DNA of 63,987 nucleotides, the filler included, from an uncultured bacterium (lineage in GTDB: Bacteria; Hinthialibacterota; Hinthialibacteria; Hinthialibacterales; Hinthialibacteraceae), in NCBI GenBank assembly GCA_964449065.1. It is 9 parts of 9 records of this genome, joined end to end, with 100 filler letters (N's around TTAATTAATTAA, not from the genome) between each part and the next. Parts side by side here need not be neighbours in the genome. Positions count along the whole stretch, not along the records: positions 43,509 to 50,595 come from CAYVAZ010000272.1; positions 50,696 to 57,779 come from CAYVAZ010000273.1; 7 more parts are not named here. One strand, given 5' to 3'. Under the pieces are notes generated by a model. It was not told where the DNA came from. It did no database searches and was given only the letters and a program-made list of their open reading frames with translations. Of this stretch, positions 33,559 to 52,880 are shown in pieces. The position numbers were made by a program, and so were the translations under genes. Position 1 is the stretch's first letter. Each line of letters begins with the position of its first letter.

Positions 33559-34045
33559 AAAAGTATGTTCGTTATCAGGGTGGGCTCAAGGCGAAGCGTA
33601 GCCCACCAATCGTACCAATAACGATTCTTAGGCTGATTGTAGTGCAGGCGTCCCGCCTGCTACTATATTTTTCCCAGCAATTCAAAATGCAAATGGTATT
33701 ATACCGTTTCCAATTTGGATTGTTCACTAAAATCAAAACGGCTTAACAGATTGCTTCGTTTGATTGCCAAGGAAAATACTTCTTTAACAGGTTGAATCTT
33801 TATGGTTTATGGTTCTCTTCGCACCCCCTCTGTCCTCCTTGCGTCGGACATCTCCCCCAAATGCTTTGGGGGAGACAAAGGCTTTTGCAGGCAAGATGCC
33901 TACACTATTATGAATACTATTTTCCGTTCCGTTATTCATAGTGAACTTTTCTATTTGAAAATGGTATTACACCTCTGCCATAGGCTTTGCTGAATTCAAA
34001 GACACTGCTTCTTATACATCCCCATTATAAAGGGGGATTGAGGGG
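33559..34045. repeat. Intergenic mosaic of REP-like hairpins and a TIR family-D element (33700-33969)
   Basis: GGTGGGCT..AGCCCACC (33579-33607); GTAGTGCAGGCGTCCCGCCTGC (33639-33660) with an inverted partner (33887-33907); TATACCGTTTCCAATTTGGATTGTTCACTA / TAGTGAACTTTTCTATTTGAAAATGGTATTA; TCTCCCCCAAA..TTTGGGGGAGA. Confidence 0.7.
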
Positions 34046-50258: not shown

Positions 50259-50776
50259 CCATTCACTCCTACAAAAATTTTCGACTACTACTCGAATACA
50301 ATGTATTTTCTGTAAAAACATTAAAAAAAGATTAACATTAAGTTAATTTGGTATTATTGTTTTGAACGTTTTCCAACATGTAAAAATAGATTATTGAAAG
50401 GAACAGAATGTTTCATGAAAATTTTTTACCGCCTGATCCCCTTTCTCTTTCATTGCAAACACATTTCGATTATGTTCAACATAAAAACTCATATTACGCA
50501 CTAAATTATGATATGCTCGTTTTGCTAATCGTTCGCTGAGTCTATCGCCCTCGCCCACCGGGAGAGGGTCGGGGTGAGGGTTCGGGAGGAATAAANNNNN
50601 NNNNNNNNNNNNNNNNNNNNNNNNNNNNNNNNNNNNNNNTTAATTAATTAANNNNNNNNNNNNNNNNNNNNNNNNNNNNNNNNNNNNNNNNNNNNTTCCT
50701 CCCCCAATGCAATGGGGGAGGTTAGGAGGGGGTTAAGGCATTTTCTCAAATAATCGACTCAACCCTCCCCTAACCC

Positions 50777-51082
50777 CAATGTCATTGACTTAATAAAATT
50801 CCGGGCGATTTGTGCAATAAAATAAGTGATTGCGTTCTTCACAATCCCCTCTGTGTCCAATGTCATTGACTTAAGGAATTAGAGCAATTCAAGGTTGGAT
50901 AAATAGGAAATTGGTATTGCACTTGCCGTAGGGGCACATTGCAATGTGCCCCTACACACAACGTCTACGCAAACCTGAAATGATCTAAGAGTGCTAAGTC
51001 AATGGCATTGGCTCTGTGTCTCACCCATACTTGGGGGAGAATATTACGTCTTTAAGCTTGATTGCTTAAATCAATGACATTG
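50777..51082. mobile_element. Nested MITE complex: outer and inner CAATGTCATTGACTTA-TIR elements (family F), a family-C shell and a GTAG REP
   Basis: Outer 50777-51082; inner 50858-51010 with (C/G)CTCTGTGTC duplication; family C 50880-50987; REP 50928-50955. Confidence 0.8.
50928..50955. repeat. GTAG-type REP, 28-bp perfect palindrome
   Basis: GTAGGGGCACATTGCAATGTGCCCCTAC, about 165 bp downstream of the RAYT stop. Confidence 0.9.
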
Positions 51083-51120
51083 GCCCCTACACCCCGTCTC
51101 AAAACATTCTCGGATATTTC

Positions 51121-51690
51121 TTATTCTTTTTTCGTAAATGCATTTGGATTTTCCTGGTCATCATCCCAACGTGCCGGATTTGCTTCAATATATTCTCGGA
51201 CACGTTTTAATTCTGACTCGTTACGAATAACGTGTTCATAATAATTACGCTGCCAAAAGGAATATCCTGGCGTCTCACGAATACTATTGATTTGTTTCGT
51301 CGTTGTCGATTTGAAAAGTCTTATAATTGTTGGAATTGAATTAGAGGTGGGGTTACCGAATTGTTCAGACGCTGGCGGTTTCTTCGTAGGGGCACGTTGC
51401 AACGTGCCCCTACCTGCGTTTCGAACACTATTATCCTCGATCACAACAATCCCGTGTAAATGGTTCGGCATGATAACAAAACAATCCAATTTCACATTTG
51501 AACGAATATCCTGCGTTCGCAACCATTCTTTGCGAACAAGTTCACCAAAAGTATTCAATTGCATTTTTTGATTTACTATCTCTCCTAACCAACATTCATG
51601 CTGATAGGTGCAAACCGTCACAAAGTAATACCCTGCTTGTGAATAATCATATTCTGGTATTCGAACTGAGCGGCGGTGATGGTTTTTCAT
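51121..51690 (-). CDS. REP-associated tyrosine transposase (RAYT, IS200/Y1 family)
   Basis: RRS.R...YDY..G.YFVT.CT, HUH motif MPNHLHG, WQRNYYEHVIRN..YI..NP..W; REP copies inside and beside the gene. Confidence 0.93.
   Translation of the reverse strand: MKNHHRRSVRIPEYDYSQAGYYFVTVCTYQHECWLGEIVNQKMQLNTFGELVRKEWLRTQDIRSNVKLDCFVIMPNHLHGIVVIEDNSVRNAGRGTLQRAPTKKPPASEQFGNPTSNSIPTIIRLFKSTTTKQINSIRETPGYSFWQRNYYEHVIRNESELKRVREYIEANPARWDDDQENPNAFTKKE
51386..51413. repeat. Intragenic REP within the RAYT
   Basis: GTAGGGGCACGTTGCAACGTGCCCCTAC, read in frame as GRGTLQRAPT. Confidence 0.9.
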
Positions 51691-51704: not shown

Positions 51705-52001
51705 TTAATGATTTTTTCTCTCCATCATCTTAGAATACTTCAAAGCCTGTTCAATATCCTCCGGTTCAAGGAATGGGTAATCTTCCAAAATCTCTTCTGG
51801 GGTTACTCCATACGCGACCTGCTCTATGATTACACTAACCGGCAAACGCATTCCGCAAATACAGGCTGTTCCACCCATAATATTCGGATCAAATGTGATT
51901 CGGTCTAATTGTTGTATTTCTACCATTTCTTGAAATTTTAACATTTCAGCATACGGATTTTTCCGGCCTTTCATTTTTGAAAAATCATAACGGTCTCTCA
52001 T
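51705..52001 (-). CDS. Chimera of BrnA-antitoxin N-terminus and DUF433
   Basis: MRDRYDFSKMKGRKNPYA (BrnA-like) fused to LDRITFDPNIMGG.ACI.GMR..EILEDYP.LEPEDI (DUF433). ATG overlaps the brnT remnant stop. Confidence 0.75.
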   Translation of the reverse strand: MRDRYDFSKMKGRKNPYAEMLKFQEMVEIQQLDRITFDPNIMGGTACICGMRLPVSVIIEQVAYGVTPEEILEDYPFLEPEDIEQALKYSKMMERKNH

Positions 52002-52081
52002 GTTCTTGTGCTCCAATATTCAGTCTTTTCCAATCGATTTGCTTTTCTTGCTGATATGATCCGAATGGTGATTTCATTCTC
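51998..52081 (-). pseudogene. brnT: BrnT toxin C-terminal remnant
   Basis: ENEITIRIISARKANRLEKTEYWSTRT*. IRIISARKA is the BrnT signature; the 5' part is replaced by a MITE. Confidence 0.75.
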
Positions 52082-52083
52082 CT

Positions 52084-52227
52084 AACTCACGTTACGCACT
52101 ACATTATTATATGCCCATTTTTCTAATCGTTCGCTTAATCTATCACCCTCTCCCAGTGGGCGAGGGCGATAGATACAGCGGGAGATGAGAATAACGGGCA
52201 TATCATTACGTATGCGTAACATGAGTT
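52084..52227. mobile_element. Foldback derivative of the family-A MITE (two left arms, head to head)
   Basis: AACTCACGTTACGCA ... TGCGTAACATGAGTT; the arms meet at the CTATCACCCTCTCCCAGTGGGCGAGGGCGATAG hairpin. Confidence 0.8.
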
Positions 52228-52274
52228 ATTGAGTTCCACACCGTTATATTTTCCCGTGAAGCTTAATTGCAGTT

Positions 52275-52589: not shown

Positions 52590-52880
52590 ATGCAGATGAA
52601 AAATCCTGTACATCCCGGGAACGTTATAAAGCATACTCTGGATGCATTAAACCTGAATATAACCGATGCGGCAGAATGGCTGGGAGTCACACGACAAACC
52701 TTATCCAGAGTGATTCATGGAAAAACTTCCTTGTCTCCGAAAATGGCAATCCGTGTATCCAAGGCGTTTGGCAGCACCCCGGAGCATTGGCTTAGAATGC
52801 AACTTGCCTATGATGTGTCAAAAATGCGTAATAAAATAGATAGCATCCACGTAAAACGGTACCCCGTACATTCCAGCTGA
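52590..52880 (+). CDS. higA: HigA family antitoxin
   Basis: MKNPVHPG..A..LGVTRQTLSRV..MAIR..KAFG..PE.WL.MQ..YD. Confidence 0.95.
   Translation: MQMKNPVHPGNVIKHTLDALNLNITDAAEWLGVTRQTLSRVIHGKTSLSPKMAIRVSKAFGSTPEHWLRMQLAYDVSKMRNKIDSIHVKRYPVHSS

Follow-up and report, generated by a model that had tools for sequence, protein, structure and literature searches.

A nest of short mobile-element-like repeats around a GTAG REP in an uncultured Hinthialibacterota bacterium

In the genome of an uncultured bacterium of the Hinthialibacteraceae, we identified a nest of short repeats beside a RAYT-like transposase gene. Four independent non-coding repeat families have probably been stacked here by serial transposition, with shells that carry hairpins and IS4-type shells that favour hairpin sites. 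The window, the whole stretch of 63,987 nucleotides that was analysed, consists of nine separate contigs strung together by N linkers, and its source is a 5.2 Mb assembly of 515 contigs that is 86.7% complete. The nest starts at position 50696, which is base 1 of contig C273, directly after the artificial linker between C272 and C273 (50596-50695, no strand). The strings and coordinates given in the original prediction, which had described four layers from the outside in, were all found in the sequence, including TIRs at 50777, 50858, 51010 and 51082. The layers are real; the inner three came as one unit and were not assembled at this place, which amends the picture of a nest built up here layer by layer. 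A genome search for each layer found every one of them standing on its own elsewhere. Chance was excluded for the 17-bp IS4 end, which had 103 genome matches with two or fewer mismatches, compared with one for the reversed word. A blastn search of plasmids with the nest returned seven weak short matches and nothing else, an Rfam scan gave two miRNA matches far under the gathering score, which we took as chance, and the sequencing-run holders listed included no RNA run.

The outer shell, denoted B, spans 50777-51082 on the plus strand, is about 144 bp long when empty, and is bounded by 17-bp TIRs at 50777-50793 and 51066-51082. It has no clean target duplication, because an element of another family, G, adjoins it on one side and half a REP by the RAYT on the other. 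Inside B lies a 153-bp composite (50858-51010, plus strand), in which about 25 bp of each end of a 134-bp subfamily, A, surround a copy of a further family, C. The 10-bp duplication predicted for this inner shell is present on the plus strand at 50848-50857 and 51011-51020, with one mismatch, and its right copy adjoins the TIR. Among 29 left-half copies of B, the inner site was empty in 14 and filled in one, and the duplication brackets the inner unit exactly where the empty B copies are uninterrupted. Tandem duplication was rejected as the source of the layers because empty sites exist. The kinship suggested between the outer cargo and 33824-33875 held as a loose alignment only: that stretch has no TIR or IS4 end, and it resembles the interior of a sister subfamily of IS4 shells.

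The inner unit comprises the inner shell together with its family-C copy and REP, measures 151-153 bp, and was found through five left and five right junctions on six contigs. It occupies at least six loci, each within another repeat, of which B is one. The four full copies are 96-99% alike and each carries a 10-bp duplication with no or one mismatch, with three different target sequences among them. Mean identity was 91% for 11 free family-C copies and 85% for eight B copies, and because the inner units are more alike than either, the inner unit is the youngest layer. Its outermost 25 bases at either end are those of A, and the transition to family C falls at a TA on each side. A second, separate composite of IS4 ends and family C is present in four copies. 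A profile scan of the genome paired 33 IS4-type elements, 10 of which had a 10-bp duplication with at most one mismatch, while every other length between 7 and 13 bp accounted for no more than one of the 33; the 10-bp flanks of 21 of the 33 differed by more than two mismatches.

The next layer, family C, is a TA-ended, MITE-like shell of the GTAG-REP cargo type (50880-50987, plus strand), and at its centre is a perfect 28-bp GTAG REP palindrome (50928-50955, no strand); both had been predicted correctly. Family C has 33 copies in the genome, and TA precedes the end motif at 76 of 87 ends of this type. The TA-ended frame formed 49 pairs, containing the GTAG REP (17), a second hairpin family (17), C/G-run hairpins (13) or short forms (2); one frame thus carries three unrelated hairpin cargos. 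For the GTAG REP itself, 61 copies were counted, many of them extragenic: 32 reside in family C and 29 elsewhere. It is a single palindrome and not an inverted doublet, whether inside family C or among the listed free copies, and a REPIN reading was rejected. Duplication of TA is a trait of the IS630 family. We found no IS630 partner for family C in its own genome, 11 IS630 loci in five relatives lacked such ends, and a metagenome scan gave one match, unrelated-looking. Because no partner was found, the IS630 likeness of family C is drawn from its TA ends and the general traits of that family.

We examined the identity of the two CAATGTCATTGACTTAA shells by their ends. The IS4 subgroup is defined in Table 1 of PMC2266710 by the end signature -AATR--------WTW and a target duplication of 10-13 bp. 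The shell ends fit this signature, and a duplication of this length is present at the inner unit but not at the outer shell of the nest. An 18-bp form of the end occurs in at least 123 stretches of public genomes, including L098 (1718 bp) and L082 (1498 bp), two intact IS4 elements bounded by these ends, whose transposases both score over the NF033592 cut-off. Two plasmid relatives listed in the IS4 subgroup, ISPa1635 and IS1675, match the shell TIR at 15-16 of 17 positions at the better end; like the shells they have 10-bp duplications, but they are autonomous, 1.6 kb long, and have nothing beyond the ends in common with them. The 17-bp end is present in 8 of 19 genomes of the same family, and remnants in which the TIR lies next to the end of the transposase are present in relatives G009 and G011. 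Judged by end signature, 10-bp repeats and ends common to intact IS4 elements, both shells are assigned to IS4-subgroup MITEs, as originally proposed.

No IS4 transposase with the shell TIR was found in the own assembly (515 contigs, 86.7% complete). PF01609 had six matches in this genome, none of them TIR-bounded, PF13006 had none in 20 genomes of the family, and the L082 protein was matched in 4 of 19 relatives and not in the own genome. Other DDE transposases (PF01609) without the shell TIR were observed at G000:C224, C435, C399, C369 and C118. A viral scan with the TIR gave five matches, all near contig ends.

From these footprints, we infer that the shells moved, and the following history can be proposed. 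A GTAG REP of the RAYT's family would first have entered a TA-ended shell, which would then have multiplied to the 33 copies present. A family-C copy would have inserted at a TA in the 134-bp A MITE, and the adjacent 85 bp or so, up to a second TA, would have been deleted, leaving the composite of 151-153 bp. This composite spread to at least six loci, as shown by distinct 10-bp duplications, presumably with an IS4-subgroup transposase acting in trans. Finally, B would have come to join a left flank that stems from an IS66-type MITE to a right flank within the REP downstream of the RAYT, through adjacent deletion or recombination between B copies. The proposal that REPs hitch-hike as cargo of transposase-type shells is supported by the family-C copies and by the inner unit.

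A different origin of the cargo would be de novo capture of hairpin DNA by the shells, for example through template switching during gap repair after IS excision, which would make IS ends general vectors of REPs. Several observations are consistent with capture. When eight MITEs were compared with nine autonomous elements or remnants, similarity was limited to the 17-28 bp ends, apart from interior matches of 30 bases or less, and the TA shell has its three unrelated cargos. We also collected at least 40 distinct short elements with these IS4 ends from the public stretches, 20 of 40 with a 10-bp duplication (one mismatch or none), and the interiors of the 40 listed, which come from other phyla, form 29 groups unrelated to one another. 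The smallest IS4-ended elements, of 68-85 bp, are barely more than two ends around one hairpin. However, the lost similarity may reflect divergence, because most intact elements in the comparison belong to other genomes; the sole case with both parents present, the inner unit, is explained by insertion and adjacent deletion; and no intermediate was seen. We therefore regard capture as possible but rather unlikely, and serial transposition as the preferred account.

The C/G-run pair at the left of the nest (50696-50776, plus strand) had been taken as the outermost, enclosing layer. This was rejected: the pair lies on the left side only, it is the middle of a fifth element, and on its right the outer shell adjoins half a GTAG REP. 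The pair is assigned to a truncated IS66-family MITE, G, about 175 bp when whole and filled with C/G-run hairpins, whose left end is cut by the contig start and whose right part is missing beyond the outer shell. G has GTAA-type ends, with 182 end matches in the genome versus 10 in the reversed genome, forming 36 pairs. An 8-bp duplication was found in 20 of 34 pairs, and in none at 5-7 or 9-11 bp; the 34 leave out two of the 36, one with an unrelated interior and one double. Intact single-ORF IS66 elements of 1593 bp with G ends, over the NF033517 cut-off, are present in relatives G009 and G010, and that of G009 carries an exact 8-bp duplication. The ISBst12 group of the IS66 family is described with a single ORF, a GTAA-type end and an 8-bp direct repeat in the cited part of PMC12898284, and in these three respects it resembles the partner of G; G differs in being a 175-bp non-autonomous element filled with C/G-run hairpins.

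The sole IS66 in the own assembly is on a GC-rich contig and lacks G ends. C367 of G000 is GC-rich, has a three-ORF IS66 with a PIN-like frame, and is probably foreign to the bin. A viral scan with the G end gave 49 matches, with no paired element or IS66 found among them. We also observed a DUF559 endonuclease-like gene, single in the genome (G000:C459, L285, about 2509-2832), with C/G-run hairpins on both sides in a REPtron-like layout. Its product is a candidate mobiliser of the C/G-run family; a literature search for a link between DUF559 and C/G-run hairpins found nothing.

The outer shell is flanked on the left by the G element and on the right by one GTAG REP arm (51083-51090, minus strand), which lies 33 bases past the last RAYT codon and was apparently cut by the shell; the two flanks differ at 4 of 10 places. 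These unmatched flanks could stem from adjacent deletion, from recombination between copies, or from a chimeric contig start. No reciprocal junctions that would account for them were found among 18 near matches. A chimera would mean that the left part of the nest arose in assembly, through the joining of repeat copies from different loci. The nest does begin at contig base 1, its outer flanks come from two repeat families, and the halves of B are unequally diverged, with 7 changes in 72 positions on the right versus 2 in 81 on the left (P = 0.08). A check for spanning sequence in Logan succeeded on one side only: one contig covers 50982-51611 with zero differences, bridging the outer end, the REP and the RAYT; it includes 29 bases of the inner unit, which is short of the 31-base rule for bridging, but the left junctions have no bridging piece among the Logan pieces listed. 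This contig may come from the same sample as the assembly.

Against a chimera, the Logan contig shows no difference across the right joint, and the two copies of the inner unit's 10-bp duplication match, lying exactly at the site that is empty in other B copies. Unmatched repeats are moreover known from hybrid elements, as reported for ISRm22 in the cited part of PMC1525189. Finally, complete nests in the order G, IS4, C and REP occur in the middle of contigs C6 (35151-35488) and C222 (6001-6336), with exact 8-bp duplications that differ between the two. We consequently consider a chimeric origin of the left part quite improbable. The C6 and C222 nests have IS66-type ends outermost and are cleaner than the nest in the window. 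They have in common a base change that is absent from 18 other aligned G copies, which hints that a whole four-layer nest has moved; the hint comes from one base at a hot-spot site, and the inner units of the two nests differ.

Next, we analyzed target choice. In 78 of 116 cases, a strong IS4 end had a C4/G4 run no more than 20 bases away, compared with 8.3% of 5986 non-coding controls, and a repeated 14-mer adjoined 51 of the 116, compared with 14.9% in the control; these counts include copies descended from one insertion, so that the P values overstate the enrichment. Counted by distinct site, 60 of 94 IS4 sites had such a run. The IS4 target profile consists of symmetric, GC-rich 10-mers, TA shells use YTAR sites, and IS66-type shells occupy AT-rich 8-mers (GC 0.32). 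IS4 ends were found within IS66 shells in 7 of 116 cases (0.9% expected) and within TA shells in 13 of 116 (1.6% expected). TA ends fell within IS4 shells in 16 of 296, a number inflated by copied composites, and none of 159 IS66 ends lay within a shell of any kind. This choice of target sets the order of layers, with IS66-type shells outermost, IS4-type shells in C/G-run hairpins and TA shells at YTAR. In relative G010 (C61, L015) the order is inverted with respect to the genome studied here, an IS66-type end being located within an IS4-type end. In relative G003, seven IS4 shells carry a different REP family, and several of them are at similar C/G-run sites.

REP hairpins had been proposed as both cargo and landing pad. 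The first role held, but the pads are mostly C/G-run hairpins, those of IS66- and TA-type shells, and not the GTAG REP: no IS4 end lies within the central GTAG REP among 33 aligned family-C copies. The right end of the outer shell nonetheless abuts half a REP. The piling up could also arise with no target preference at all, if insertions were tolerated only in existing junk repeats. This alternative is named for pneumococcal repeats in the cited part of PMC3049150, and 107 of the 116 IS4 ends are indeed in non-coding DNA. Yet the controls are themselves non-coding and the bias is still eightfold, the IS4 target profile is symmetric and GC-rich, and two different IS4 subfamilies inserted at the identical base of G. 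IS66-type shells, under the same selection, chose AT-rich sites and were never nested. We judge tolerance without preference quite improbable.

The neighbouring gene (51121-51690, minus strand) is an open frame for a RAYT-like HUH/Y1 transposase of 189 aa, which scores over the PF01797 cut-off and at 72.8 bits with NF047646, below that model's cut-off of 80. Within the gene lies an in-frame REP of the same family (51386-51413, no strand), identical to the central REP at 26 of 28 bases. That the RAYT built the nest, or moves it as a REPIN-like unit, is highly unlikely: the nest ends only 38 bases from its stop, and the in-frame REP recurs in the RAYT of a relative (G012), but the layers are bounded by DDE-type TIRs with duplications of 10 bp, 8 bp and TA, the other five inner-unit copies are on contigs without a RAYT match, and no evidence for the RAYT as nest builder was found. 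What can plausibly be credited to the RAYT is limited to the 29 free REP copies and the initial arrival of the REP in a shell. A REP was also found just downstream of the RAYT in three of six RAYT loci of relatives, and a viral scan found no relative of the RAYT. Like the one in the window, the RAYT genes at L287-L291 and L296 contain a REP of their own, or an arm of one, in frame at an equivalent position of the protein, and the REP family differs from gene to gene.

Other features of the surroundings were recorded. A DUF433 protein lies upstream of the RAYT at 51705-52016, an HTH_3 antitoxin-like protein is encoded at 52590-52880, and a small partner gene may precede the latter. On C272, 48153-50321 (minus strand) encodes a secreted-looking protein of 722 aa that contains internal repeats and has no match in Pfam. 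The window also includes another family of mini-elements, at 52083-52228 and 50500-50583, which has TAA-type ends and contains a C/G-run hairpin; on C219 and C241, members of this family are inserted where the IS4 TIR ends on its inner side.

The original prediction knew of no description of such a multi-family arrangement. This did not hold, as the cited parts of PMC3049150, PMC1525189, PMC3733652, PMC3184786 and PMC6042816 contain precedents. A close counterpart of the shells by description is Nezha of Anabaena and Nostoc. This MITE of 130-170 bp has its TIR in common with its partner ISNpu3, of the IS4 subgroup (PMC3184786; PMC2266710, supplement S4), and has a 10-bp direct repeat (PMC6042816). 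It shares with the shells an IS4-subgroup TIR, the 10-bp repeat and a partner transposase absent from the host genome, but the cited parts of these reports describe no REP cargo, nesting or hairpin targeting for it. ISRm22, an IS4-family element that targets REPs and forms the unmatched-repeat hybrids mentioned above (Tobes and Pareja 2006, PMC1525189), likewise inserts into palindromic repeats; it differs in being autonomous, in belonging to the IS4Sa subgroup and in its 6-bp repeats, and the cited part describes no REP cargo.

The BOX, RUP and SPRITE repeats of Streptococcus pneumoniae (PMC3049150; PMC10969869) resemble the nest as small families mutually inserted, but in the cited parts no composite is described as spreading as a unit and no order is fixed by three transposase end types. 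Longer inverted-repeat frames regularly contain REPs of the GTAG and CGTC types, and GTAG REPs are RAYT-associated (Di Nocera 2013, PMC3733652). These palindromic shells resemble the nest in placing REP families inside longer frames; the cited part of that report treats the frames as targets and draws no link to IS ends, whereas the frames here bear IS4, IS66 and TA footprints and would move with the REP. Our literature search, over titles and abstract openings with subscription journals sparsely covered, found no REP-carrying IS4, IS66 and TA shells nesting in a fixed order.

As a mosaic of known parts, the nest is unusual but has partial precedents. With each part being of a known class, the locus by itself is of modest weight, and such nests at contig ends can mislead assemblies. 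The less familiar point is that these IS4 ends surround unrelated interiors across phyla, some of them CGTC-type REP dimers. Among the 40 listed elements, 10 contained a C/G-run hairpin, 7 a CGTC/TGTC-tagged dimer and 11 a stem of at least 10 bp, compared with 1.8%, 0.8% and 1.5% in shuffles, by motif patterns that were defined post hoc, after the sequences had been viewed. We tentatively propose, as a possibility that still falls well short of probable, that IS ends of the IS4-subgroup, IS66 and TA types are general carriers of host hairpin repeats across phyla, picking up REP-type cargo time and again, CGTC-type REP dimers included, that IS4-type carriers land in the hairpins of other shells, and that multi-layer nests spread whole. 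This carrier idea is testable, since the 153-bp unit has known ends and its partner family can be named. CGTC REPs appear without a dedicated transposase in the cited part of PMC3733652, and the wider pattern bears on the open question of how REP families unserved by a RAYT spread. If true, the carrier model would provide a RAYT-independent route for the spread of REPs.
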